Below are positions 10,280 to 64,000 of a DNA stretch of 64,000 nucleotides, one piece after another. The number at the start of each line of letters is the position of its first letter. Positions within the stretch are counted from its first letter, which is position 1. Under the pieces are notes generated by a model. It made no database searches and was not told the origin of the DNA. It was given only the letters and a program-made list of their open reading frames with translations. The stretch comes from Candidatus Micrarchaeia archaeon (GTDB lineage: Archaea > Micrarchaeota > Micrarchaeia > Anstonellales > JAHKLY01): positions 1,180 to 65,179 of the forward strand of contig JBAZFO010000003.1 of assembly GCA_041653315.1 (NCBI GenBank), in the 5' to 3' direction. The position numbers and the translations under genes were made by a program.

Positions 10280-13200
10280 TTAGGCTTCATCTAGCCAGTC
10301 GTCTTCATCGCGCATTAAATTCATACGCGCATTTTGTAATAAAAGCGCTTTTTCAGCGCTTGCTACAATTCTTCTTGTGCGCTCAATTGCATCTGGATTA
10401 ACAGACATTGATGTAAATCCATATTCAACTAAGCGCCTTGCAAAATCTGGATACACAGAAGGCGCTTGACCACATACTGAACATGTAATTCCTTTTTTAT
10501 TACAAGTTTTACCTATATATTTCAAGGATTTTAACACAGCACTGTTTCTTTCATCAAAATCATGCGCTAATTTAGCATTATCTCTGTCAACACCCAAAGT
10601 TAATTGAGTTAAATCATTTGTACCTACAGATACTCCATCTATTCCTACATCTATAAATTCATTTAATAAAATAACATTGGAAGGAACTTCTACCATCATC
10701 CAAAGTTTAAAATCTTTAGTTCTGTACAACCCTACTTCATGAAGTATTGTTTTAACTTGTTTAAGCTCTCCAACTCTCCTTACAAAAGGAATCATTAACC
10801 AAAGATTTTTAAGATTAAATTCATTACGAACTTTTTTTATTGCTTCTAATTCCATTTTGAAAACATTTGGATCTGAAATATATCTTGAAGCTCCTCTAAA
10901 ACCCATCATTGGATTTTCTTCTTCATGCTCATATTTTTCTCCGCCTTTTAATGATTTATATTCATTTGTTTTGAAATCAGTTGCTCTATAAACAACAGGC
11001 CTTGGATAAAAAGCAGAAGCAAATTTTCTTAATTCATTTGATAATTTATTTATAAATTCTTCTTTTCTATTTTCATCAACAAAAACTCTTGGGTGTTCTC
11101 CAATTTCAGCAATAATAAACTCTGCTCTTAATAATCCGATACCATCTACATCCATATCTGCTATTTCTTCAACTCTTGAAGAACTAGCTAAATTAACATA
11201 AATTTTAGTTCCAGTTATAGGAGAATATTTTTCTGTTTGAGAAATTTGTTTAGTTTCTTTATTTTTCATTTTAATTATTCCTTCATATACCACTCCCCTA
11301 ACTGCATCAACAGTTACATTCATCCCAGTAGATAATTTTTTAGTAGCATCGTTAGTACCAACAATACATGGTATGCCTAATTCTCTAGAAACTATGGCCG
11401 CATGTGAAGTTGAACCCCCATAATCAGTTACAATTGCACCTGCTTTTTTCATTGCTGGAACAAAATCTGGAGAAGTCATAGAGGTAACTAAAATTTCGCC
11501 TTTTTGTATTTTATCAATTTCATTTTTTGTAGGGATAATTCTTACTCTGCCAGAAACAACTCCTGGTGATGCACCTAATCCTTTTAATAAAACTTCTCCT
11601 TGTTCTTCATCAGAAGAATAATATGAAGGAGAATCTTCTTCATAAGATAAAGAATATCTTTCATTAATGTCTTTTTTTTCTGCTAATGAATCAAGTAAAT
11701 TATTAACTTCATCTTTTTCTTCTGTATTCTCTTGATCTAAAGTAGTAATAGGTCTAGATTGTACTATATACATTTTTCCATTTTCATAAGCCCATTCTAT
11801 ATCTTGAGGAACACCATAATGTTTTTCTATTTTTCTGCATATTTTTGCGAGTTCTACTATCTTATCATCAGATAATTTTTGTAGATTTTGAGAACTTAAT
11901 GAAATATCAATATGTTCATTTTTACCTTCAGATAAAATCAATTTCCAAGTCTGTGTAGAAATAAATTTATTTATTATTTGTAAATCATCTTTTTTAACTG
12001 AATATCTATCTGGAGTCAACGCACCAGACACTACAACTTCTCCTAATCCATATGCACCTTCAATTTCTATTCTATTTTTATCTTGGGTAATAGGATCAAC
12101 AGTAAAAGCTACACCTGCTGTTTCTGATTGAACCATTTTTTGGACTACAGCTGAAAGTCCGACTTTTAAATGATCAAATCCATTTTCAGTTCTATAAAAA
12201 ATAGCCCTGGATTCAAATAAAGAAGCCCAACATTCTTTAACAGATTGAACTACGTTTTCAGGTCCTTGAATATTAAGAAATGTTGACTGCTGCCCAGCAA
12301 ATGAAAATGTGTTATGGGTAATTATTCCCCCAGTTCCAGCAACAAAATTTTCAATTCCTGGAACAGTAAAATCATAAACCCACCCTTCATAATCTAATGG
12401 CTTTACTTCTTTTATTTTTTCCCAATTCACATCACCATCAAAAATAGATGAAAGATCTTCTGAATTATACTCTTTCATTAATTCTTTGAATCTTTTTTGT
12501 GTATATTCTCCATTTAATACTCCTTTATTCCAAGGAGTTGATTCTCTTTTAAATTTCCCAAATTCATCATAATAAACATATGCTTCTTCCTTTTCTTTAA
12601 TTACATCTTTATCATAAAAAGACTTTTTACAATTTGGACAATAATATCTTGTTTTTGTTTTATATTTGCTTGATTTATTTATTTTTTCTTTACAAATAGG
12701 ACATTTATTTATTTCAATGATGTCTTTTGATAATTTTGCATCTACTTTGTTTTTTATAATATCTGATAATTTTTTTGAAATTTTTATATTCGCTATATAT
12801 CTTGGAGAATTATTTTTTATTTTTATTAATTTATTTAATCTTTCTTGCTTCTTTGGATGTTCAAATCCTATCTCTTTTTTAAATAAATCAACATCTCCCC
12901 CCCAAATACTAAGCACCCTATATTTTTTCTTTTTATTAAAAGTAATACCAAAACCAAAAAGTTCTAATAATTTTGCTAAACCACTTATAAGTAAGTATGA
13001 AGAAGAGGTACAACTTATTGTATCTTTACTTACATATCCATCTCCATCAAAATAACCTTTTAAAAATTCAGATATAAATTGCTTTTCTAAACTAAAAATA
13101 AAATCTGGTATCCGTTTTATTTCACAGGATTTGCCTTTACCTTTCATATCTAAAGGTTTACCAGTTAATTCATGCAATAATTTAACGAGTGTTTTACAAT

Positions 13201-14251
13201 ATATCCTTAACGAATACTTATTTATTTTTTGATTATTATATAAACCAAGCGAATCAACAAATTTTATTACTCTATTCATGATTTCTTTTGTTGATGAAGT
13301 TATGATAACATTATTATCTTCATATGTTGAACCTTCAGCAACATAAACACCTAAAAAATACATAAAATCCTTTGTTAATGGAATTTTTGAAGGTAAAGAA
13401 TTTTGGATATTCCAATTATTAGAATTATTTTTAATCATAAGGTATCCATTTTCTTCAACAACATTTTTTCCTTTTATATAATCTGTTACCTCTAAATATT
13501 CCATTTTTTTATTTACAAATGGAAGTGTACCAACAGTAGGAACCATTTCTCCTCCTTTTAAATTATCAATTGTTTCTGTTTTCCATTCTAAAGTATCTTC
13601 ATCTAAAACTATTAAAGAATGATTTTTAGATACAGTAATCTCTTTTCCTGAAGCAGTTTTTATTTTATATACTCTTTCATTTGCGGGGTGTCTATATATT
13701 GAACTAGCGCTAGTCCATATTAATTTATTGTTTTTCATAGAAGGAACTTCTAAATTCACATTTTGTCCATCCCCAATTAATTTATATAATTCCCCCATTG
13801 TACAAAATTTGGTATTATTATTTATCTTTACTAAAACATGATCTTCTTCTGATATACTTGGCAAATCTTCTGCTGTGGCTGAAGATCTTACTGCAACATA
13901 GGTTTGATCACCATATTTTTGACATAATTTATTATACGCATCCATTATTTCATTTTTTAAATAATCTGGAATTTTACCTGCTAAAATTGCATTTTTAATA
14001 AATAAAGAAGCTTCATTTAAATTTTTAATATTATGAACATCTAAATCACTGGAATATTCTTTTATTAAAGAAGTAATATTATTTAATCTAATAAAATCAT
14101 AATAAGCTCCACTTGAAACACAAAAACCATCTGGAATTGGAAAATCTGAATTAATCATTTCACCTAGATTAGCCCCTTTTCCCCCAACTTCTGCTAAATT
14201 ATTTTTACTCAATTCTTTAAACCAATAGATATTTTTCATTATAAACACCAA
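10280..14251 (-). CDS. ppsA: Phosphoenolpyruvate synthase (PEP/pyruvate-binding, PEP-utilising and PEP-synthase domains), interrupted by an intein
   Basis: N-terminus GGKGANLGEM. Extein junction VAVRSSATAEDLP / TFSFAGQQSTFLN matches the conserved AEDLP..SFAGQQ block. The conserved PEP-utilising domain and C-terminal Cys block are present. Called start is TTG; the in-frame ATG at Met5 is an alternative. Confidence 0.9.
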   Translation of the reverse strand: MVFIMKNIYWFKELSKNNLAEVGGKGANLGEMINSDFPIPDGFCVSSGAYYDFIRLNNITSLIKEYSSDLDVHNIKNLNEASLFIKNAILAGKIPDYLKNEIMDAYNKLCQKYGDQTYVAVRSSATAEDLPSISEEDHVLVKINNNTKFCTMGELYKLIGDGQNVNLEVPSMKNNKLIWTSASSIYRHPANERVYKIKTASGKEITVSKNHSLIVLDEDTLEWKTETIDNLKGGEMVPTVGTLPFVNKKMEYLEVTDYIKGKNVVEENGYLMIKNNSNNWNIQNSLPSKIPLTKDFMYFLGVYVAEGSTYEDNNVIITSSTKEIMNRVIKFVDSLGLYNNQKINKYSLRIYCKTLVKLLHELTGKPLDMKGKGKSCEIKRIPDFIFSLEKQFISEFLKGYFDGDGYVSKDTISCTSSSYLLISGLAKLLELFGFGITFNKKKKYRVLSIWGGDVDLFKKEIGFEHPKKQERLNKLIKIKNNSPRYIANIKISKKLSDIIKNKVDAKLSKDIIEINKCPICKEKINKSSKYKTKTRYYCPNCKKSFYDKDVIKEKEEAYVYYDEFGKFKRESTPWNKGVLNGEYTQKRFKELMKEYNSEDLSSIFDGDVNWEKIKEVKPLDYEGWVYDFTVPGIENFVAGTGGIITHNTFSFAGQQSTFLNIQGPENVVQSVKECWASLFESRAIFYRTENGFDHLKVGLSAVVQKMVQSETAGVAFTVDPITQDKNRIEIEGAYGLGEVVVSGALTPDRYSVKKDDLQIINKFISTQTWKLILSEGKNEHIDISLSSQNLQKLSDDKIVELAKICRKIEKHYGVPQDIEWAYENGKMYIVQSRPITTLDQENTEEKDEVNNLLDSLAEKKDINERYSLSYEEDSPSYYSSDEEQGEVLLKGLGASPGVVSGRVRIIPTKNEIDKIQKGEILVTSMTSPDFVPAMKKAGAIVTDYGGSTSHAAIVSRELGIPCIVGTNDATKKLSTGMNVTVDAVRGVVYEGIIKMKNKETKQISQTEKYSPITGTKIYVNLASSSRVEEIADMDVDGIGLLRAEFIIAEIGEHPRVFVDENRKEEFINKLSNELRKFASAFYPRPVVYRATDFKTNEYKSLKGGEKYEHEEENPMMGFRGASRYISDPNVFKMELEAIKKVRNEFNLKNLWLMIPFVRRVGELKQVKTILHEVGLYRTKDFKLWMMVEVPSNVILLNEFIDVGIDGVSVGTNDLTQLTLGVDRDNAKLAHDFDERNSAVLKSLKYIGKTCNKKGITCSVCGQAPSVYPDFARRLVEYGFTSMSVNPDAIERTRRIVASAEKALLLQNARMNLMRDEDDWLDEA
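12311..13858 (-). mobile_element. Intein (516 aa) with a LAGLIDADG homing-endonuclease domain inside ppsA
   Basis: Begins SISEEDHVLV (Ser1) straight after DLP and ends ...GGIITHN followed by Thr+1. LAGLIDADG blocks LGVYVAEGS and LKGYFDGDGYVS. Removing it restores an 807-aa PpsA. Confidence 0.8.
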
Positions 14252-14364: not shown

Positions 14365-14502
14365 GGGCTCGTAACTCAGCTTGGTAGAGTGGCTGGCTTT
14401 TAACCAGTAAGCCAAGGGTTCAATAACCTTTTTCTTTCTTGCAAGAAAGTAAAAGCTTAACCAAAAAGAAAGAAACTGGAAGAATAAATCCCTTCGGGCC
14501 CG
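14365..14502 (+). tRNA. tRNA-Lys (anticodon UUU) with a roughly 61-nt intron inside the T-loop (between TTCAA and AT, position 58/59)
   Basis: Acceptor GGGCTCG/CGGGCCC, D arm ACTC...GAGT, anticodon stem-loop GCTGG CTTTTAA CCAGT. T stem AAGGG...CCCTT is split by an intron that carries the hairpin TTTCTTTCTTGCAAGAAAG. Poly-T follows. Confidence 0.7.
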
Positions 14503-24709: not shown

Positions 24710-25588
24710 TTACTCTTTTTTAATGAAACATAATACAAAAATCATTATTCCAGTATATATAATTAATATATAATTCTTGTATGTCTCAGGTAAATAAATT
24801 AATAAAAGAAGGAATAATAATAAGAAAATTAAACCATAAAAATATTTTTTAGGAACTAATTTAAAAAGAATTTCAACTTTATCTAAATAAGAATTTTTAT
24901 GTGCTTCTTCAAAATTTAAAGAGATATTAGTTAAACCTTGAAAATTCTCTGCAAATATAGTTTTTTCTAATTTATCAAAATATTCAAATATTTCCTCTTT
25001 ATTATCCATAGTTATTGCTTTTAACTGCAATATCTCTTCTAATGAAAAAATAACAGATTTTATTTCGGCCATTAAAGATGGATTTAAATCAGGCATATTT
25101 GCATCATTTAAAGTATTTTTTATTTTAATAAATTCTAATTTTAATTCTTTAACTGATTTTTTAACTTCATCAAGATAAACTCCCCTATTTAAAGGATCAT
25201 CTAACTTCTTTTTTGTTTTGATTATTAAATATTTTAAATAATCACTATATGAAAATCCATAATTCTTTTTAAAATAAGAAAGAAATAGTTTTAATGAAGG
25301 TCTTCCTATTTGGATATTTAAAAAGGCTAAAAATTTTTCTAAAATAAAACAAAATAAAAGTATTGAAAAAGTAAATAAAAATAATAAAAATACTGCACTC
25401 ACTAAAGAAGTTAACACTATTAATATAACATTTTCTTCTAAAGTAAAATTAACTAAATAATAAAGAATAAATACAAAACTTATTAAATATACAATACCAT
25501 GCCACCATCTTCTAAAAGAAACTGCTGCTGAAATATCATCAAAAACTATATCTCCATTATTTTTTGTTTTCATATTTAAACGCCCCAA
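24710..25588 (-). CDS. Integral membrane protein, hypothetical
   Basis: Several hydrophobic segments at both ends and a charged central region. Confidence 0.4.
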   Translation of the reverse strand: MGRLNMKTKNNGDIVFDDISAAVSFRRWWHGIVYLISFVFILYYLVNFTLEENVILIVLTSLVSAVFLLFLFTFSILLFCFILEKFLAFLNIQIGRPSLKLFLSYFKKNYGFSYSDYLKYLIIKTKKKLDDPLNRGVYLDEVKKSVKELKLEFIKIKNTLNDANMPDLNPSLMAEIKSVIFSLEEILQLKAITMDNKEEIFEYFDKLEKTIFAENFQGLTNISLNFEEAHKNSYLDKVEILFKLVPKKYFYGLIFLLLFLLLLIYLPETYKNYILIIYTGIMIFVLCFIKKE

Positions 25589-25652
25589 ACCTTATTTGAT
25601 ATTTTTATTTTATATCTTCTTCTTTATAAATGTTTTGCTTTGTGTAAAAAAA

Positions 25653-25678
25653 AGTAAATAGCCTGCCTCAGACTCTGT
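25653..25678. repeat. 26-bp direct repeat AGTAAATAGCCTGCCTCAGACTCTGT, copy 1
   Basis: Identical copy at 27321..27346 spanning the AbiEii stop codon. Confidence 0.8.
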
Positions 25679-25836
25679 TTGAATTATGTGTGAATAGACT
25701 AACCTACATTGTTTATTTAACTTAATTTTGTAATAATATCTTTTCCTTCATAAAATTAGTTCAAAAAGTGTCATTTAATGACACTTTTTAAAAAGAAATA
25801 GAAAGGTTTTTATATTAGTAAGTAATAAACATATCT

Positions 25837-26433
25837 ATGAAAAATATAATTAAAATTTATGAAGCACTGATTAATCGAAAATCAAAAATATGTCATAGAA
25901 AAGAAATTATTGATATAATCAAAGAATATAATAAAAAATTTGGGAAAGTAAACATTAAAAACACGCTAAAATATCTTTCAAGACATAAATATACTATACG
26001 AGTATTCAAAAAGTTCTATTATATAAATTCATTAGATGAAAAGGAGCGTAAATTTTGTTTATTTGAAGATAGAGAATTATTATTTTCTGTATTAAACAAA
26101 CTCGATATTAAATGGTATGTTGGACTTAACTCTGCTTTATACATTTCTGGAGAAATTTGGCAAATACCAAACATATTGACAATAGTAAACAACAAAATAA
26201 GTGGAAAAAAATCAATACTTGGAATTACTGTTAGATTCTTCAAAATAAAAGAATCTTTAATTTTCGGCCTTAAGACAAAAAAAACTAAAAATAAAATTAA
26301 ATTTTATTACTCTAATCCCTCAAAAACTTATTTAGATTTAGTATATTTCAAACAATCTAAAAAAATTATTTTAAAGGAAAAAACTAAAAATTATCTTAAG
26401 AGGTATCCAAAATGGCTCAAAAAATTAATATAA
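25837..26433 (+). CDS. AbiEi-like antitoxin/regulator
   Basis: N-terminal wHTH-like LKYLSRHKYTIRVFKKFYYI. Overlaps the downstream AbiEii gene by 22 nt. Confidence 0.5.
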   Translation: MKNIIKIYEALINRKSKICHRKEIIDIIKEYNKKFGKVNIKNTLKYLSRHKYTIRVFKKFYYINSLDEKERKFCLFEDRELLFSVLNKLDIKWYVGLNSALYISGEIWQIPNILTIVNNKISGKKSILGITVRFFKIKESLIFGLKTKKTKNKIKFYYSNPSKTYLDLVYFKQSKKIILKEKTKNYLKRYPKWLKKLI

Positions 26434-27329
26434 ATAAATACATTGCAGAGGTCAAAAGGAATCTTGGAATAAAAGTTTCAGATGAAATAATTGAAAAAGA
26501 CCTGCTTCTGACTATTATTTTAGGGGAGTTTGAAAAGCTCGGGCTTGGAAAAGAACTTATTTTTAAAGGAGGAACTCTTTTATCGAGAAATTATTTGAAT
26601 TACCATCGATTTTCTGAAGATTTGGATTTTGTTCATCATAAATCCAATAAATTAAGAAAAATGAAAAGAAGAACAAGAGAAAAGGAAATTAAAAAATTCA
26701 TAGATTCATTTGTTCCAAAAATATATACATTAGCTGAAAACCTTGAACTTATATTTAGTAAAAATAGAAGTGATACAAAATTCTGTACTATTCTTCATGG
26801 AAGGACAGTATATATTTTCAGAATGTATTATTCTAACTCTAGATTTATAAAAATTGAGATTAATTTTATAGAAAAAATTATTCACAAACCAGTAAAAATT
26901 TCAATAAAAACAATAACTGATCTTTTTGATTCAAAAGAACTTGTGTTCAGTCTTGGGCTTGATATTCAAAACTTTAATATAAAAAGCTATTCTATAAATG
27001 AAATACTCATTGAAAAATACAGGGCAATTTTAACAAGAAAAGACTTAAAAGAAAGGGATTTGTTTGATTTATTTTTTATTCCAAATTCTCTTTCAATAAA
27101 AAAATCTGAAATAATACAAAAAATAAGTGCTTCATCATTAATAAAACGGGATCTTAATAAACTAATAGAAAAAAAACTTACTTTACTTGAAAAAAACAAT
27201 TTTTTTGAGAGTGATGAAAATATGGAATACCTAGCAATCGCTAATTATGATAAAAAGAAATTTGAAAAATTTAAGGAAAAAATAAAACCAAAACTAATAG
27301 AAATTTGCAAGACATTTTTAAGTAAATAG
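26412..27329 (+). CDS. AbiEii-type nucleotidyltransferase toxin (DUF1814-like)
   Basis: KGGTLLSRNYLNYHRFSEDLDFVH signature. Confidence 0.7.
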   Translation: MAQKININKYIAEVKRNLGIKVSDEIIEKDLLLTIILGEFEKLGLGKELIFKGGTLLSRNYLNYHRFSEDLDFVHHKSNKLRKMKRRTREKEIKKFIDSFVPKIYTLAENLELIFSKNRSDTKFCTILHGRTVYIFRMYYSNSRFIKIEINFIEKIIHKPVKISIKTITDLFDSKELVFSLGLDIQNFNIKSYSINEILIEKYRAILTRKDLKERDLFDLFFIPNSLSIKKSEIIQKISASSLIKRDLNKLIEKKLTLLEKNNFFESDENMEYLAIANYDKKKFEKFKEKIKPKLIEICKTFLSK

Positions 27330-27346
27330 CCTGCCTCAGACTCTGT
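27321..27346. repeat. 26-bp direct repeat, copy 2
   Basis: Identical to 25653..25678. Confidence 0.8.
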
Positions 27347-27476
27347 CAGCCTTCTCATCGCATTTCTGCTAAACGGTTGTTCATGTCATCATCGGCTTTG
27401 TCTATAATATACGAACATTTCTGCGCATAATATCATAGACAATTATATTTATGCTTTTTCCCTTTATAAATATTAC

Positions 27477-28567: not shown

Positions 28568-28810
28568 TGCTCCGGCCGGGATTTTCTCCCAGTTGGCTTT
28601 TTTGCGCCAGCCAAGGTTTTGAATTCTCGAGCCTACAGGGTTCTTTTCTTTCCCTGGGGTTTCTTTTCTTACAAGAAAAGAAAGGCCACCCGGGTCGCCA
28701 GGGATCTCCAAATTTTCTTTTTCTTTCCCAAGGGTTTCTTTTTCTTTTCAAAAAAGAAAAAGAAAGGCTTTGAGAGCCTGGTATCCTTGACCGGACTAGA
28801 CGACCGGAGC
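28568..28810 (-). tRNA. tRNA-Glu (anticodon CUC) interrupted by three predicted introns: in the anticodon loop, at the T-stem/T-loop junction (about 53/54) and within the T-loop (58/59)
   Basis: Exons read GCTCCGGTCGTCTAGTCCGGTCAAGGATACCAGGCTCTCA / CCCTGGCGACCCGGG / TTCAA / ATCCCGGCCGGAGCA. Joined, they give a canonical archaeal tRNA-Glu (GACCCGGGTTCAAATCCCGGCCGGAGCA). Poly-T follows. Confidence 0.6.
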
Positions 28811-28814
28811 TTTA

Positions 28815-28928
28815 CGAATGTAATGAGTAAAGCGAGGTCTTTTTGCAACAGCAAAACAGACCGGAGCAAACGAACGTTAGTGAGTTTGTGAGGTCTTTTT
28901 GACAAAGTCAAAACAGACCGGAGCAAAA
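28815..28928. repeat. Two tandem units of about 57 bp upstream of tRNA-Glu. Each ends in a copy of the tRNA 5' end (GCTCCGGTCTG) embedded in a GGTC...GACC hairpin
   Basis: CGAATGTAATGAGTAAAGCGAGGTCTTTTTGCAACAGCAAAACAGACCGGAGCAAA versus CGAACGTTAGTGAGTTTGTGAGGTCTTTTTGACAAAGTCAAAACAGACCGGAGCAAAA. Confidence 0.7.
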
Positions 28929-31865: not shown

Positions 31866-31977
31866 TGGGCCTGGTGAGATTGTCAGACTTTCTGGCAATA
31901 TTTTGCGCCAGTAAAATCAATTGAACTCACGATCTTTGTCGTGTGAGGACAACATCATACCACTAGACCACAGGCCC
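31866..31977 (-). tRNA. tRNA-Val (anticodon CAC) with a roughly 40-nt intron in the T-loop (58/59)
   Basis: GGGCCTG TG GTCTAGTGGTATGAT G TTGTC CTCACAC GACAA AGATC GTGAG TTCAA[intron]AT CTCAC CAGGCCC A. Intron contains the CTGGCGCAAAATATTGCCAG hairpin. Confidence 0.7.
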
Positions 31978-32081
31978 ATAGACTGTGGGCTTTTGAACAA
32001 AGTTCAAAACAAACCACAGGCTCTTAAGAATTTTTTAATCTTCTCAATATTATAAATATATAAAAACATTCGCTTATTAAA

Positions 32082-40185: not shown

Positions 40186-40293
40186 TGGGCCCAGTGAGAT
40201 TTGAACTCACGGCCTCTCGATTATCAGTCGAGCGCTCCAACCATTTTAGGCTTATTTAAATCTTACTAAATAAACTGACTAAGCTATGGGCCC
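40186..40293 (-). tRNA. tRNA-Ile (anticodon GAU) with a roughly 31-nt intron in the D-loop
   Basis: GGGCCCA TA GCTT AGTCAG[TTTATTTAGTAAGATTTAAATAAGCCTAAAA]TGGTTGGAGC G CTCGA CTGATAA TCGAG AG GCC GTGAG TTCAAAT CTCAC TGGGCCC A. T-loop is intact. Confidence 0.65.
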
Positions 40294-55496: not shown

Positions 55497-58319
55497 TTGA
55501 AAGGTGAAAATATGAAAAAAATAAATGAAGCAGAATGGGAAATTCCAAAAGAAGGCAATATGAATGTACCAATAAAAATTATTGGAACTGAAAAATTAAT
55601 TGAACAAATGAAAAGAGACAGAACATTTAATCAAATAAAAAATGTATCAACATTACCAGGGATTATTAAACATGCATTAGTGATGCCTGACGGCCATGAA
55701 GGATATGGTTTTCCTATTGGGGGGGTTGCTGCATTTGATTTAGAAACAGGAGTTATACCTCCAGGAGGGGTCGGATATGATATTAATTGTTTAACTGGAG
55801 ATACAAAAATTCCAACACCATATGGATGGTATCTAAAAATAAAAGATTATAATTTTCTATCTGATATTTCATTAGTAACAAATGGAAATACATATCTATT
55901 CAATACTCTTCAAAATTATTTTGTTTCTTCAAAACAAGGCCAATCAAAAGTTAAAAATTTTATGTATAAAGAATATAAAGGTGAAATATATAAAATAAAA
56001 ACAACTGCTGGAATACTAAAATGTACGGAAGAACACCCTATATTTACTATAAATGGAAAAAAATCAATAGATATTTTAACAATAAAAGATATGATTTTAT
56101 GCAACCCACATTTAGGGGTAGAATATAAAAAATACAAAGGAATTGAAGAAGATAAAAAATTATCTATATTTAGTAAAATTTTTGGATATCTTCTTGGAGA
56201 CGGAACAATTTATAAAACTAAAAACAAATTTTATGCAGTAGCTTATGGAACAGAAGAAGACCTTAAAAAAATGTCAATTGATTTAAAATCAATTGGTTAT
56301 TCTTCAAAAACATATCACAGATTAAGAGACCACTGTATAAAAGGAAAAAGTTTCAAAGCAGATAATTGGGAATTACATATTTATTCAAAGGAATTTATTG
56401 AAAAACTAATTAAACTTGGAATGCCTTTAGGAAATAAAACTAAAACAAAATTTGAAATACCTAATTGGATAATAAAAGGACCTAAATGGATAAAAAAACA
56501 ATTTTTAGCCGGGTATTTTGGAGCAGAAATGTCTAAACCTAAAAGTATGAGTAAAACATGCTTATATTTACCAGATGTAACAATGACAAAAGAAACAAAA
56601 TTAATAGACAATCTCAGATTTTTTATGCTACAGATAAGCAAAATATTAGAAGAATTTGATATAGAAGTATCAAAAATCTCAATTATTGAAAATGAAAAAG
56701 ATAAAAGTAGAATACGACTACTTATTAATGGTAAACCTAAAAATTTAATAAAACTTTATTCAAAAATTGGATTTGAATATAATAATAAAAGAGACTTTTT
56801 AGCAAAATGTGCAATATTATATTTAAGAAAAAAAATTAAAAATAAAAAAGAGAGGAGTGAATTAGCAAAATGGATTAAAAATAAAAAAGAACAAGGATTT
56901 AAAGCTAAAGAAATCAAAAAAATATTAAATGAAAAAATCAACGATAGGTTCATTGAGAGAGCATTTTATGAAAATTGCACTACAAGATTAACTCTTGATT
57001 TTCCATCTTTCAAAAACTTTGTCAAAGAACAAAAAGAATATTTTGAAGTTTATGGTACATTAATAGCTGAAATCATATCTATAGAAAAAAGAAAATTTGA
57101 AGGAAGAGTTTATGATTTCACTATAGAAAAAGATCACAATTTTGTTGCTAATGGAATTATAGTTTCAAATTGCGGGGTGAGATTAGTAACAACTGGTTTA
57201 ACTGTGGATCAAGTTAAACCAAAAATTGATGTTTTGATTAAAAAATTATTTGATAATGTCCCATCTGGTGTAGGTTCAAAAAGTAAATTACGTTTAGATG
57301 AAAATCAATTAAAAGATGCTTTAATAAACGGAGTAGAATGGGCAGTTAAAAATGGATATGGAAGACAAGAAGATATTGAAAATTGTGAAGAATATGGAAA
57401 AATGGAAGGTGCAGATCCATCCGCTATATCACAACAAGCACTAAAAAGAGGAAAACCTCAATTTGGAACATTAGGTGCAGGAAATCATTTCTTAGAAGTT
57501 CAGAAAGTAGATGAAATTCTATCTCCAGAAATAGCTGAAAAATTTGGTTTGAAGAAAGACCAAGTTGTTGTAATGATTCATTGCGGTTCAAGAGGATTAG
57601 GACATCAAATATGTGGAGATTATATTGATATAATGCTTAGAGCATCTGAAAAATATGGAATAAAATTAGCTGATAAAGAATTATGTTGCGCCCCAATAAA
57701 ATCTGAAGAAGCACAAAATTATATGAAAGCAATGAAATGTGCTGTTAATTATGCTTTTACAAATAGACAAGTAATAATGCATTGGGTAAGAGAAACTTTT
57801 GATGAAGTTTTTGGAAAAGGAACAAGTAATGATATGCATCTAGTATATGATGTTGCACATAATATAGCAAAAATTGAAGAACATGAAGTAGATGGGAAAA
57901 CAATGAAAGTATGTGTACATAGAAAAGGAGCAACAAGAGCATTTGCAAAAGGAAGGAAAGAATTACCTAAAAAATATATTGATATCGGACAGCCAGTTCT
58001 AATACCTGGTAGTATGGGAACTGCATCTTATGTTTTAGTTGGAAAACAAAAAGGAATGGAAGTTTCTTTTGGTTCAACATGTCATGGGGCAGGACGTGTA
58101 ATGTCAAGATCAGAAGCAATAAGGTCTTTTACTTTTAATCAAATCAAAGAAGAAATGAATGCAAAAGGAATAAAATTATTAGCTGCAGATAGACAAGTAG
58201 CACAAGAAGAAGCTTCAGGAGCATATAAAGATGTCGACGAAGTAGTTAAAAGCGTTGCGTTAGCAGATATTAGTGAAATAGTTGTAAAATTAAAACCAAT
58301 AGGTGTTGTAAAAGGATGA
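55497..58319 (+). CDS. rtcB: RtcB-family RNA 3'-phosphate ligase (tRNA-splicing ligase) interrupted by an intein
   Basis: Exteins: ...PDGHEGYGFPIGGVAAFD...GVGYDIN / CGVRLVTTG..., with HxxGxRG-type catalytic His motifs in the C-extein (GAGNHFLE, HCGSRGLGHQ, CHGAGR). Joined extein is 479 aa. Confidence 0.9.
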   Translation: MKGENMKKINEAEWEIPKEGNMNVPIKIIGTEKLIEQMKRDRTFNQIKNVSTLPGIIKHALVMPDGHEGYGFPIGGVAAFDLETGVIPPGGVGYDINCLTGDTKIPTPYGWYLKIKDYNFLSDISLVTNGNTYLFNTLQNYFVSSKQGQSKVKNFMYKEYKGEIYKIKTTAGILKCTEEHPIFTINGKKSIDILTIKDMILCNPHLGVEYKKYKGIEEDKKLSIFSKIFGYLLGDGTIYKTKNKFYAVAYGTEEDLKKMSIDLKSIGYSSKTYHRLRDHCIKGKSFKADNWELHIYSKEFIEKLIKLGMPLGNKTKTKFEIPNWIIKGPKWIKKQFLAGYFGAEMSKPKSMSKTCLYLPDVTMTKETKLIDNLRFFMLQISKILEEFDIEVSKISIIENEKDKSRIRLLINGKPKNLIKLYSKIGFEYNNKRDFLAKCAILYLRKKIKNKKERSELAKWIKNKKEQGFKAKEIKKILNEKINDRFIERAFYENCTTRLTLDFPSFKNFVKEQKEYFEVYGTLIAEIISIEKRKFEGRVYDFTIEKDHNFVANGIIVSNCGVRLVTTGLTVDQVKPKIDVLIKKLFDNVPSGVGSKSKLRLDENQLKDALINGVEWAVKNGYGRQEDIENCEEYGKMEGADPSAISQQALKRGKPQFGTLGAGNHFLEVQKVDEILSPEIAEKFGLKKDQVVVMIHCGSRGLGHQICGDYIDIMLRASEKYGIKLADKELCCAPIKSEEAQNYMKAMKCAVNYAFTNRQVIMHWVRETFDEVFGKGTSNDMHLVYDVAHNIAKIEEHEVDGKTMKVCVHRKGATRAFAKGRKELPKKYIDIGQPVLIPGSMGTASYVLVGKQKGMEVSFGSTCHGAGRVMSRSEAIRSFTFNQIKEEMNAKGIKLLAADRQVAQEEASGAYKDVDEVVKSVALADISEIVVKLKPIGVVKG
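55788..57170 (+). mobile_element. Intein (461 aa) with LAGLIDADG homing endonuclease inserted at the GYDIN/CGVR site of RtcB
   Basis: Starts CLTGDTKI (Cys1) and ends ...GIIVSN followed by Cys+1. LAGLIDADG blocks IFGYLLGDGTIY and FLAGYFGAEMSKP. Confidence 0.8.
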
Positions 58320-62459: not shown

Positions 62460-62676
62460 CGCCGAGGGAGGGATTTATTCAATTTCTTTCTTTTTGGTTA
62501 AGCTTTTTCTTTCTTTTTAAAGAAAGAAAAAGGTTATTGAACCCCCAAGTCCGTGAAGACACACGATTTCTTATTTTTATTTTGTTTTCTTTTCTTTGCT
62601 TAAGCTTTCTTTTCTTTTCCAAAAGAAAAGAAAGGTTATTCCAGTCGTGCGCACTACCAGATTATGCGACCTCGGC
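62460..62676 (-). tRNA. tRNA-Ser (anticodon GGA, long variable arm) with two introns: canonical 37/38 in the anticodon loop and a second in the T-loop (58/59)
   Basis: Exons GCCGAGGTCGCATAATCTGGTAGTGCGCACGACTGGAA / ATCGTGTGTCTTCACGGACTTGGGGGTTCAA / ATCCCTCCCTCGGCG. Variable-arm hairpin GTCTTCACGGAC. Poly-T follows. Confidence 0.6.
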
Positions 62677-62782
62677 ATTACTATGACGAGGGTTGTAAGC
62701 TTTGCTTACTTTACCTCGGCATGAATATAATATATGACGGAGGATTTTCATGAAATGAAAACTGACCTCGGCATAATTATTA
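62667..62782. repeat. About 2.5 tandem units of about 50 bp upstream of tRNA-Ser. Each begins with a copy of the tRNA 5' end (ATGCCGAGGT) and forms an inverted repeat with ATGACG(A/G)AGG
   Basis: ACCTCGGCAT at about 62669, 62713 and 62765, paired with TATGACGAGGG and TATGACGGAGG. Confidence 0.65.
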
Positions 62783-62896: not shown

Positions 62897-63772
62897 TTAT
62901 CTAAACTCTATTGATTCTGGAGTATGTACTCTGTAATATCTTCCGAGTTTACATATCAATCCATTAATCTCCATAGACATTTGATCAGATCTATCTTTAG
63001 AATATGCATAACGCGTTTTACAGAAAGAGGGAACATCAGAAAAAAAATTAGTATCTACAATCCGAGTATGTTTCAAAAATTTTGGTTGAATAAAACCATG
63101 AGAATCATAAGTTGTAATAAATTTAGATTCAATAAACATATTCAAAACTACCTCTAACCCATAACCTATTCTTTTAACTACCTCTGGTTTTTCATTTTTA
63201 TCTATTACAATTCCAGTAATTAAATAAAACCAAGGTATGATTGATTTTTTTCGTCTAAAAATTTGTTTAAATAGTTGAAACCAAGAGATTTTCTTTTTAT
63301 CATCTAAAATAGGTTCTAATGCCTTAATTCTTAAAGCTCTTTGGCCACTTAAATAAGTGATGCTCTCCTTTGTTGTTCCAATTGTCATATTTATGTTTTC
63401 ATTATTTAATATTGGATTAATAAGCATATCAATTTGTTCTTCTGAAACCTTTAGTAAATCAGCATCCAACATTAAAATTATATCTGCGCCCATTTGATAA
63501 GATGCTTTTGCTGCGCAATAAAATGCAAATGCTTTTCCCATATTTTCAGGTAAAACAATATTAATAAAACCGGGATTTTCTAAATAAGCTTCTAATTTTC
63601 TCTGTGAACTATCTTTACTTCCATCATTAATTGCTATTATGCCATCTATTTTCCCTTCATTCAACATATCATTTAAAGGATTAAGTGTTTTATGTAAATT
63701 TTTAGCTTCATTATAAACTGGCACAATTGCCATTATTTTATGTGGCTTTTTGGCTGTTTTTTGAGATTTCAT
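62897..63772 (-). CDS. Family 2 glycosyltransferase (dolichol-phosphate sugar synthase-like)
   Basis: MAIVPVYNEAKNL, INDGSKDSS, DxD in LMLDADL. Confidence 0.8.
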   Translation of the reverse strand: MKSQKTAKKPHKIMAIVPVYNEAKNLHKTLNPLNDMLNEGKIDGIIAINDGSKDSSQRKLEAYLENPGFINIVLPENMGKAFAFYCAAKASYQMGADIILMLDADLLKVSEEQIDMLINPILNNENINMTIGTTKESITYLSGQRALRIKALEPILDDKKKISWFQLFKQIFRRKKSIIPWFYLITGIVIDKNEKPEVVKRIGYGLEVVLNMFIESKFITTYDSHGFIQPKFLKHTRIVDTNFFSDVPSFCKTRYAYSKDRSDQMSMEINGLICKLGRYYRVHTPESIEFR

Positions 63773-63865
63773 ATTAAAAGATGTGTTTTTGGGTGTTTAT
63801 AAATGTAATGTTTTATATAAAAAAAGTATAATTATTTAAATAAAATAATAAAAATTAAATAGAAA

Positions 63866-63910
63866 AATAAAAAAATAGAAAAATAAAAAATAAGAAAAAT
63901 AAAAAAAGAT
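63866..63910. repeat. Low-complexity tandem repeat, three to four units of (A/T)AGAAAAATAAAAAA
   Basis: ATAGAAAAATAAAAAAATAGAAAAATAAAAAATAAGAAAAATAAAAAAAG. Confidence 0.5.
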
Positions 63911-64000
63911 TTGGCCTAGATTATTGAAAATCTTTCTTTTTTATGTTCTGTTGGTGCACCGGGACCACCTATTTTTTCTACTTTTTCTGTTTTTCTTGCT

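Follow-up and report, generated by a model that had tools for sequence, protein, structure and literature searches.

Five transfer RNA (tRNA) genes lie in a 64-kb stretch of contig JBAZFO010000003.1 from a Candidatus Micrarchaeia archaeon (the window, 64,000 nt), and all five are interrupted. They hold eight introns of 33-71 nt that fit the bulge-helix-bulge (BHB) motif. We read them as introns spliced by protein, five of which are built on one hairpin module that acts as a proliferating unit; we put the probability of this reading at roughly 60%. It draws on the anatomy of the module, the fit of the junctions to the BHB motif, a similarity that is greater between paralogous than between orthologous introns, the presence and absence of introns among related genomes, and a wide distribution of the same element. 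A splicing endonuclease would cut the introns out and the RtcB ligase encoded in the window would join the exons. The module would have been copied into or between introns, and probably also inserted at new sites. Copies in tRNA and ribosomal RNA (rRNA) genes would survive through their removal by the endonuclease. Other archaea have the element at gene boundaries and sometimes within protein genes. For sites with unrelated flanks we favor insertion, either at the DNA level or by reverse splicing.

ARAGORN found no intact tRNA in the window and Rfam gave only partial tRNA matches there, since each tRNA gene is interrupted; Rfam gave no family for the hairpin module. The genes were located by reading GC-rich islands and by folding. 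Splice sites were placed by the BHB rule, which requires a 4-bp helix between two 3-nt bulges with a cut after the second base of the bulge. Virtual splicing at BHB-compatible sites gives, by inspection, a canonical cloverleaf for all five genes. Two introns, Ser T-loop and Glu 37/38, came out of a blind scan with a strict BHB. The central helix has four of four pairs in the Lys and Ile introns and three of four in Ser 37/38, Glu 53/54, Glu 59/60, and Val 59/60 (by hand). No group I or group II ribozyme core was matched by Rfam in the window or in the loci L002-L007 (L numbers denote loci compared with the window).

Two of the T-loop introns needed a choice of junction. For Val, splicing at 59/60 yields the T-loop UUCAAUU, identical to that of the intron-less allele in the related genome L138. 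This placement makes UUCA/UGAC the central helix, the T stem the outer helix, and GAUUUU/AAAGUC the inner helix; the fold z of the intron is -4.0. At 58/59 the central helix of Val has only one pair of four. We chose 59/60 for Val because it reproduces the intron-less T-loop and the BHB fails at 58/59. The flanking helices of Glu are also weaker at 58/59, and 59/60 was kept. We read the outer helix of the Glu 59/60 intron as the T stem, which would form once the 53/54 intron is removed. The Glu exons are those of the allele in the relative L128, which is without two of the introns. The Ile D-loop intron has a fold z of -4.6, and its site is also occupied by an intron in L137.

Five of the eight introns (Lys T-loop, Ser T-loop, Ser 37/38, Glu 37/38, and Glu 53/54) share one order of parts. 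A flank ending in CC (TAACC, AAGCC, or TGGCC) is followed by a pyrimidine arm (Y), a loop of 2-4 nt, a purine arm (R1), an 8-nt spacer, a second purine arm (R2), and a tail. R1 is the reverse complement of Y and pairs with it. A preliminary description of this DNA had assigned the module to the anticodon-loop introns of Ser and Glu and to the 53/54 intron of Glu; we found it in these three and in two more, the T-loop introns of Lys and Ser. The spacers are either GCTTAACC or a C-run plus a G-run (Table 1). The tail past R2 is site-specific and provides the bases that pair with the local exon for the BHB. The module does not occur outside tRNA introns on either strand of the window.

The base of the hairpin is also paired. 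Variants of the leading pentamer show that its first two bases pair with the bases after GCT (TAACC/GCTTA, GCACC/GCTGC, CGACC/GCTCG, ACACC/GCTGT). This pairing surrounds a conserved C.C mismatch, and a fixed ACC follows. We considered the two TAACC strings as a direct repeat or target duplication and rejected this, since the variants identify the first two bases as pairing partners at the hairpin base followed by the fixed ACC. A reading as an intrinsic terminator was rejected as well; an A-run follows the hairpin on both strands.

Table 1. Interrupted tRNA genes, introns, and other features of the window. Y, R1, and R2 are the arms of the module; base-pair counts such as 3/4 refer to the central helix of the BHB.
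Feature	Position	Strand	Basis	Flank	Y	R1	Spacer	R2	Tail
tRNA-Lys(UUU), one intron	14365-14502	+	Rfam partial match 14372-14431; ARAGORN Lys(ttt) once spliced
Lys T-loop intron 58/59, 64 nt	14424-14487	+	GUUC/GAAU 4/4, bulges AAU and AAA	TAACC	T5CT3CT2 (14429-14440)	14443-14454	GCTTAACC (14455-14462)	A5GA3GA3 (14463-14475)	CTGGAAGAATAA
tRNA-Ser(GGA), two introns	62460-62676	-	same exons in L133-L136 orthologs
Ser anticodon-loop intron 37/38, 71 nt	62568-62638	-	relaxed BHB: central 3/4, outer 8 bp, without inner helix	TAACC	T3CT4CT4 (62621-62633)		GCTTAAGC	A3GA4GA4
Ser T-loop intron 58/59, 62 nt	62475-62536	-	strict BHB GUUC/GAAU, bulges AAU and AAA, outer 4 bp, inner 2 bp	TAACC	T5CT3CT3		GCTTAACC	A5GA3GA3	TTGAATAA
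tRNA-Glu(CUC), three introns	28568-28810	-	sequence and folding; orthologs in relatives
Glu intron 37/38, 67 nt	28704-28770	-	strict BHB CUCU/GGAG, bulges CAA and AUC, outer 5 bp, inner 2 bp	AAGCC	T3CT5CT6 (28750-28765)		CCCTTGGG	A3GA5GA4
Glu T-arm intron 53/54, 65 nt	28624-28688	-	BHB central 3/4, inner helix 5 bp	TGGCC	T3CT4CT2		CCCCAGGG	A3GA4GA2	CCCTGTAGGCTCGAGAA
Glu T-loop intron, best at 59/60, 36 nt, contains CTGGCGCAAAA	28582-28617	-	central UUCA/AGAA 3/4, inner 3 bp
tRNA-Val(CAC), one intron	31866-31977	-	weak Rfam tRNA match and sequence
Val T-loop intron 59/60, 40 nt, hairpin CUGGC-GCAAAAUAUU-GCCAG	31880-31919	-	hand reading, 3/4
tRNA-Ile(GAU), one D-loop intron	40186-40293	-	Rfam tRNA match 40194-40252
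Ile D-loop intron ~17/18, 33 nt, without the Y-R1-R2 module	40244-40276	-	best BHB candidate UUAG/CUAA 4/4, inner 10 bp
RtcB tRNA-splicing ligase gene with intein	55497-58319	+	Pfam RtcB E = 2.6e-171, Intein_splicing, LAGLIDADG_3
Pyruvate phosphate dikinase gene with intein	10280-14251	-	LAGLIDADG homing-endonuclease domain in intein
Probable C/D box small RNA	27329-27396	-	boxes AUGAUGA and CUGA by eye; Rfam sR14/sR1 weak, below threshold

The T-loop introns of tRNA-Lys and tRNA-Ser are near-identical although their exons are unrelated, as the preliminary description had stated. In the alignment 56 of 66 columns are identical (85%), compared with 57% identity for the exons. The alignment scores 44, whereas 300 shuffles that preserve composition average -4.9 and reach 8 at most (z = 10.9). 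The string TAACCTTTTTCTTTCTT occurs four times in the window with at most two mismatches, where 0.2 occurrences are expected. The shuffles score far lower and the string is overrepresented; AT-rich low complexity, which that description had named as grounds for refutation, thus does not account for the match. Both intron strings quoted in that description are present, the 62-nt Ser string at 62475-62536 (-). The 61-nt Lys string lies at 14424-14484 (+) and not at 14426-14486.

In the identity matrix the Lys and Ser T-loop introns are mutual nearest neighbors (0.85). Their orthologs in syntenic relatives are more distant (Lys 0.48-0.64, Ser 0.69-0.73). A paralog identity above ortholog identity is what a recent transfer within the genome would leave, and we take the Lys/Ser pair as such a case. 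For Ser 37/38 (85% identical to L134), Glu 37/38, and Glu 53/54 the closest matches are instead the orthologs (0.85-0.95), and identity among the three is 0.66-0.68. The metagenome contig L108 carries the same 53-nt core, with one mismatch from the Ser copy, in a D-loop and with a different tail. The host tRNA is probably Pro, and the tail fits a D-loop BHB (inner AACC/GGTT, central GUCU/GGAC). A T-loop intron stands at the same site in tRNA-Lys and tRNA-Ser of every relative examined. The sites thus predate the similarity, which indicates that an existing intron was overwritten or filled and not newly gained. The two genes have the exon flanks GGGTTCAA and ATCCCT in common, without a difference, and gene conversion through these flanks is the copying route that we favor.

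The relatives are syntenic contigs of at least three related genomes, reached through neighboring proteins, with orthologous proteins that are 82-87% identical. Related assemblies are GCA_015657915.1, GCA_020854825.1, and GCA_964635315.1. Their Lys T-loop introns all begin WAACCTTT and differ in their interiors. The one in L128, TAACCTTTTTCTTTAAAGAAATTGGTGGAACAG, is the window intron minus an internal 31 nt; it has GAAC in place of GAAU opposite GUUC, and the pairing is kept. The tRNA-Lys of L128 also has a D-loop intron, which the window is without. In tRNA-Ser, both introns are present in all relatives, each with the module but with other arms (T-loop ACACC-T2CT3CT3 and GCAC-T6CT6; 37/38 T4CT3CT3 and T6CT3CT2), and R2 always tracks Y. 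L133 has a third intron in the D-arm of tRNA-Ser. The tRNA-Glu introns vary most. L128 is without those at 37/38 and 53/54, L138 has the 37/38 intron of the window (94%) and none at 53/54, and L137 has the 53/54 intron of the window (95%) and a different intron at 37/38. The Glu T-loop intron differs in all four genomes. The tRNA-Val of L138 has no T-loop intron but an anticodon-loop intron, and the tRNA-Ile of L137 carries one more intron, in its T-loop, whose module has the arms T6CTCT4 / A5GAGA4. Intron-bearing and intron-less alleles, whose existence in related genomes the preliminary description had proposed as a check, are thus both found (Glu 37/38, Glu 53/54, and Val T-loop, with extra introns in Lys, Ser, Val, and Ile). 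On these comparisons, introns appear to have been truly gained or lost in the Glu, Val, Ile, Lys, and Ser genes.

The module common to the Ser and Glu introns is an architecture that was inherited vertically and kept through sequence change, and not a recent copy. The earlier proposal of recent proliferation therefore divides. It holds for the Lys/Ser transfer and for the L108 core; it does not hold for the Lys and Ser sites, which were pre-existing, or for the Ser/Glu module, which is vertical (85-95% versus 66-68%). The proposal also missed the same-direction relation of the third arm to the first and the frequency of the element outside tRNAs.

One module outside tRNA genes was seen in the same clade, in the spacer directly after the ribosomal protein S10 gene (L133 3845-3905 and L134 3866-3925), with the flanks TTAAC / ATTAAC. 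The homologous S10 spacer of the window (63772-64000) has T-rich sequence only. This S10 module is the single non-tRNA one in the 186 kb scanned, comprising the window, its syntenic relatives, and three metagenome contigs.

Species-representative genomes were searched with the pattern AATAACCTTT plus AAAGCTTAASCAAA, which does not dictate the hairpin, the contexts, or the Y/R2 relation. They gave six loci (Methanosarcinales, Woesearchaeota, Halobacteriota). A slightly looser pattern gave at least 120 metagenome matches and six stretches on viral contigs, three of them on one contig. All pattern matches have a hairpin of variable sequence between fixed flanks. Among the matches listed there are 126 distinct instances. 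About 93 of these (about three quarters) are in neither tRNA nor rRNA, about 28 are flanked by tRNA sequence, and three are at a 23S rRNA site. Nineteen of the 126 resolve by virtual splicing as single-intron tRNAs, all in the sense orientation, and one antisense case is doubtful. Their junctions fall in the D-loop, the anticodon loop, the T-loop, or near the 3' end. The ARAGORN isotypes of the 19 shift with the trial splice site; they include Glu, Pro, Arg, Met, Gln, Ala, Cys, Trp, and Lys.

The copies outside tRNA genes show several contexts. In many of them the upstream gene ends with the TAA of TAACC, or a start codon on the opposite strand is 1-5 nt off. A promoter reading of the start-codon copies was rejected; three copies counted by hand have about 28, 34, and 46 nt from GGTTAAGC to ATG. 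The element is also found in tandem arrays. In a metagenome-assembled genome of Halobacteriota (L007 847-1211, JAXHTJ010000097.1), a TAACC..GCTTAACC element in the opposite orientation breaks the frame of a DUF772 (IS5-like) transposase. Deletion of 44 nt gives a continuous Pfam DUF772 match, positions 1-69 of 74. An almost identical copy in the same genome (L005 ~1410-1475, JAXHTJ010000090.1) lies in frame in the signal peptide of a predicted secreted protein and is flanked by the 9-nt direct repeat TCGCAATAA. A predicted viral contig of 35.5 kb (IMGVR_UViG_3300045825_000703) holds three copies (L141, L142, L144), which are GC-rich hairpins between TAACC-TTTT and AAAA-GCTTAACC flanks. Such a contig is a possible vehicle for spread between hosts. 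In L018, L027, L050, and L106 the element follows GGTCCGACTGTTTAACAAA, which we take to resemble conserved 23S rRNA near E. coli position 1780. The 3' end GGTT of these copies can pair with the starting AACC, as in tRNA D-loop introns, and they are probably small rRNA introns.

The relation between Y and the third arm is unusual. R2 is the complement of Y in the same direction; it is thus the mirror image of R1, and not a repeat of it. An 8-mer test could not separate a mirror from a direct repeat, the cores being periodic, and whole tracts were compared instead, in 41 distinct modules with tracts of 7 nt or more. Of these, 31 have an R2 that complements Y perfectly in the same direction, and only seven have one that is a perfect antiparallel complement; we read the seven as mirror-symmetric over the compared stretch. 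When the offset is left free, the same-direction match is better in 29 modules, equal in 12, and worse in none. Across the pattern matches the leading same-direction match of Y and R2 averages 5.8, as against 4.1 with shuffled partners, and 38 instances reach a match of at least 7, as against 4.9. Y, R1, and R2 covary across orthologs and paralogs. In the mismatched hairpins (window Lys, L108, L138 Glu, L134 Ser, and L026) it is R1 that departs, and Y and R2 still match. To our knowledge, no templated DNA process produces a complement without reversal, and for this reason we take the Y/R2 relation to be selected.

R2 as the Watson-Crick closing partner of Y was considered and rejected, as the two are in register only in the Lys and Glu 37/38 introns. 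With asymmetric arms (T5CT3CT3, T5CTCT) Watson-Crick pairing of Y and R2 reaches the core only. In RNAfold the Y:R1 helix and a shifted Y:R2 helix are nearly iso-energetic in Lys and Glu 37/38, and the minimum-energy fold of the Lys T-loop intron pairs Y with R2. R2 may take part with R1 in a two-state switch, or it may be a third strand on the Y:R1 helix. An order of Y, R1, and R2 in which R2 mirrors R1 is the layout of single-strand purine-motif triplexes (R.R-Y), and R1-spacer-R2 is the classical mirror repeat of H-DNA. The module has the same order and the same mirror relation. The sequence features of a triplex, namely mirror symmetry and a homopurine third strand, are present, with 31 of 41 modules in perfect same-direction register. 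The module differs from these systems in that a few non-purine positions also obey the relation and in that R1, the would-be central strand, tolerates mutation. Purine-motif triplexes of RNA are considered unstable, and we know of no natural RNA precedent for a same-direction third arm, if it is structural.

The strongest alternative is a DNA element similar to miniature inverted-repeat transposable elements (MITEs) or repetitive extragenic palindromic (REP) sequences. It would insert anywhere, the tRNA copies would be the spliceable survivors, and no transposition at the RNA level would be needed. The large share of listed matches outside tRNA and rRNA, many of which adjoin start or stop codons exactly, fits this explanation. 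So do the disrupted DUF772 gene with its domain restored on removal, the in-frame signal-peptide copy with its 9-nt repeat, the tandem arrays, and the three copies on one viral contig. Against it stand the absence of consistent target-site duplications or terminal inverted repeats and the absence of a linked transposase, none having been found with the element. Every window copy is in a tRNA intron, and the 186 kb scanned hold one non-tRNA module. The orientation in tRNA genes is 19:1 in favor of sense. This could be selection for spliceability, and it also fits an RNA-level route. We regard the explanation as possible, with well under an even chance.

A second alternative involves no movement at all. 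The introns would be old and vertically inherited, and the Lys/Ser identity would reflect gene conversion between pre-existing introns, that is, concerted evolution. The constant T-loop site in Lys and Ser, the identical flanks of the two genes, and the closeness of Ser 37/38, Glu 37/38, and Glu 53/54 to their orthologs are all as it predicts. Seven introns nonetheless vary in presence (Glu 37/38, Glu 53/54, Val T-loop, Val anticodon-loop, Ile T-loop, Lys D-loop, and Ser D-arm). In L108 the core occupies a D-loop, a place in which conversion cannot be driven by homology of the flanks, and the element is also found in rRNA, at gene boundaries, and in a transposase gene. We consider this explanation unlikely.

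Convergence is far less probable still. It would have AT-rich low complexity and the shared exon pairing with UUCAAAU yield similar introns independently. The ends of T-loop introns are indeed constrained (AACC and a GAAU-AA end recur in Lys, Ser, and relatives), the genome has 26% GC, and the periodic cores defeat a word-based test of mirror against direct repeat. The Lys/Ser alignment and the identity matrix have already largely refuted it. No shuffle approached the observed score, and orthologs under the same exon constraints reach only 0.48-0.73 where the paralogs reach 0.85. The shared stretch takes in the unconstrained loop, R1, the spacer, and R2, and L108 has the same core in a D-loop, under other exon constraints. 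The weakest explanation, pseudogenes inactivated by repeats with intact tRNA copies elsewhere in the genome, would fit the blank ARAGORN result and the intron T-runs that could terminate transcription, but it is hardly credible given five canonical cloverleaves restored at BHB-compatible cuts, conserved exons, introns at the same sites with compensating changes in relatives, and, according to PMC3239211, the 56% disrupted tRNA genes of ARMAN-2, with 53/54 and 59/60 introns cut in vitro.

Several points weigh against proliferation of a protein-spliced module. All splice sites are inferred from sequence, and the T5-T6 runs within introns might end archaeal transcription. The splicing endonuclease EndA was not found among the 30 window open reading frames scanned, though RtcB is present. 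The Glu intron pattern among relatives fits no single tree, and strain recombination could mimic gain and loss. The search pattern fixes 22 positions, so that conservation of the TAACC/GCTTAACC flanks is by construction. The taxonomic breadth rests on the titles of six records. Consistent terminal inverted repeats and target-site duplications were not found (there is the 9-nt repeat at L005 and none at L007), which leaves transposition as DNA unproven; the tRNA copies have no duplicated exon bases around them. Mutations are tolerated in R1, which fits poorly with a triplex that has R1 as its central strand.

A bolder extension of the proliferation reading is that Y-R1-spacer-R2 is the core of an undescribed and widespread archaeal element, UAACC-UUUU-hairpin-AAAA-GCUUAACC-AAAA. 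It would seed or remodel BHB introns in tRNA and rRNA and occupy gene boundaries. Its third arm would be needed for spread or splicing, either in a two-state switch or in a structure beyond Watson-Crick pairing, namely a purine-motif triple helix or H-DNA. We offer this only speculatively and would not expect all of it to hold.

How archaeal tRNA genes gain introns at odd positions is still debated, and the only well-documented spread is that in Thermoproteales (Fujishima 2010, Mol Biol Evol 27:2233, as summarized in PMC4033280). As in the summary given there, similar BHB introns are found here in different tRNAs, at non-canonical positions and with several introns per gene, and gain appears rapid in one lineage. 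In place of a hyperthermophilic crenarchaeote, the host here is a member of the DPANN Micrarchaeia, mesophile-like and with 26% GC. What the introns share is a defined three-arm module and not similarity over their whole length, the Lys/Ser event overwrote an existing intron, and the element is abundant outside tRNAs. ARMAN-2 belongs to the same phylum. According to Fujishima et al. 2011 (PMC3239211), 56% of its tRNA genes are disrupted and 53/54 and 59/60 introns are cut in vitro by its endonuclease, an epsilon-2 splicing endonuclease of broad specificity (PMC3239211; Hirata 2012, PMC3488258). The two genomes are alike in 53/54 and 59/60 introns, two introns in one T-arm, strict and relaxed BHBs, and many disrupted genes. 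The window also has 58/59 introns, and the passages of PMC3239211 searched make no mention of sequence families shared between introns.

MITEs and REP-like repeats are alike in being small and non-coding, with a hairpin core, dispersed at gene boundaries, occasionally in genes, and in tandem arrays. The present element differs in that neither a linked transposase nor terminal inverted repeats accompanied by regular target duplications were found, and in being orientation-specific in tRNAs, where it is part of an intron. No prior description of the motif or of mobile BHB elements was found in a full-text literature search, which misses most papers in subscription journals. The window adds a further case of intron spread, a process known before, now in a second lineage and in a form that has a defined unit. 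Neither the three-arm rule nor the wide occurrence outside tRNAs was found described in the literature searched.

The window and its syntenic relatives provide a second, independent lineage in which filled and empty sites, and overwritten and vertical introns, can be separated gene by gene. They tie tRNA introns to a small structured element that extends well beyond tRNAs. Because the element also lies outside tRNAs, the hypothesis that introns begin as tolerated insertions of a mobile hairpin is directly testable. The same-direction third arm provides a sequence rule without a templated origin.

The Val and Glu T-loop introns form a separate, looser family (identity 0.60-0.64), to which the Glu T-loop intron of L137 also belongs. 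The preliminary description had placed a shared 11-nt core inside a CTGGC/GCCAG hairpin in both. The core CTGGCGCAAAA is indeed present in both, but the full stem CUGGC/GCCAG is found in Val only; Glu has UGGC/GCCA inside CUUGG/CUGGG. The core occurs exactly twice in the window, at 28600-28610 (Glu) and 31901-31911 (Val), both on the minus strand. The window-wide count is weak evidence by itself, with at least two matches in 10 of 100 shuffles. Both copies lie in introns at the same tRNA position, 59/60.

The window is archaeal, with a GC content of about 26% overall and 20-30% per 2-kb window. The host is a DPANN archaeon of the class Micrarchaeia. The encoded proteins include fibrillarin, RtcB tRNA ligase, pyruvate phosphate dikinase, and AlaRS. 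The dikinase has 1323 amino acids in the window, compared with 806 in L128 and 805 in L129. Both of these are short and without intein domains, which indicates that the dikinase intein is polymorphic in the clade. The terminal AGCCTGCCTCAGACTCTG of the probable C/D box small RNA reappears in the spacer at 25588-25837, and a related sequence lies near 25668-25685 (+).

Hairpins are also present in the 5' leaders of three of the tRNA genes, all on the minus strand: Ser (62734-62774 and 62683-62722), Glu (28832-28867), and Val (31981-32023). They open with the first 9-10 nt of the tRNA and end with a near-complement, for example ATGCCGAGGT...CCCTCGTCAT. The sequence of the inner stem varies and its pairing is kept, an arrangement that resembles tandem mini-helices mimicking the acceptor stem. 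These leader hairpins are kept in all syntenic relatives, in 2-4 copies for Ser and from one to at least five for Glu.

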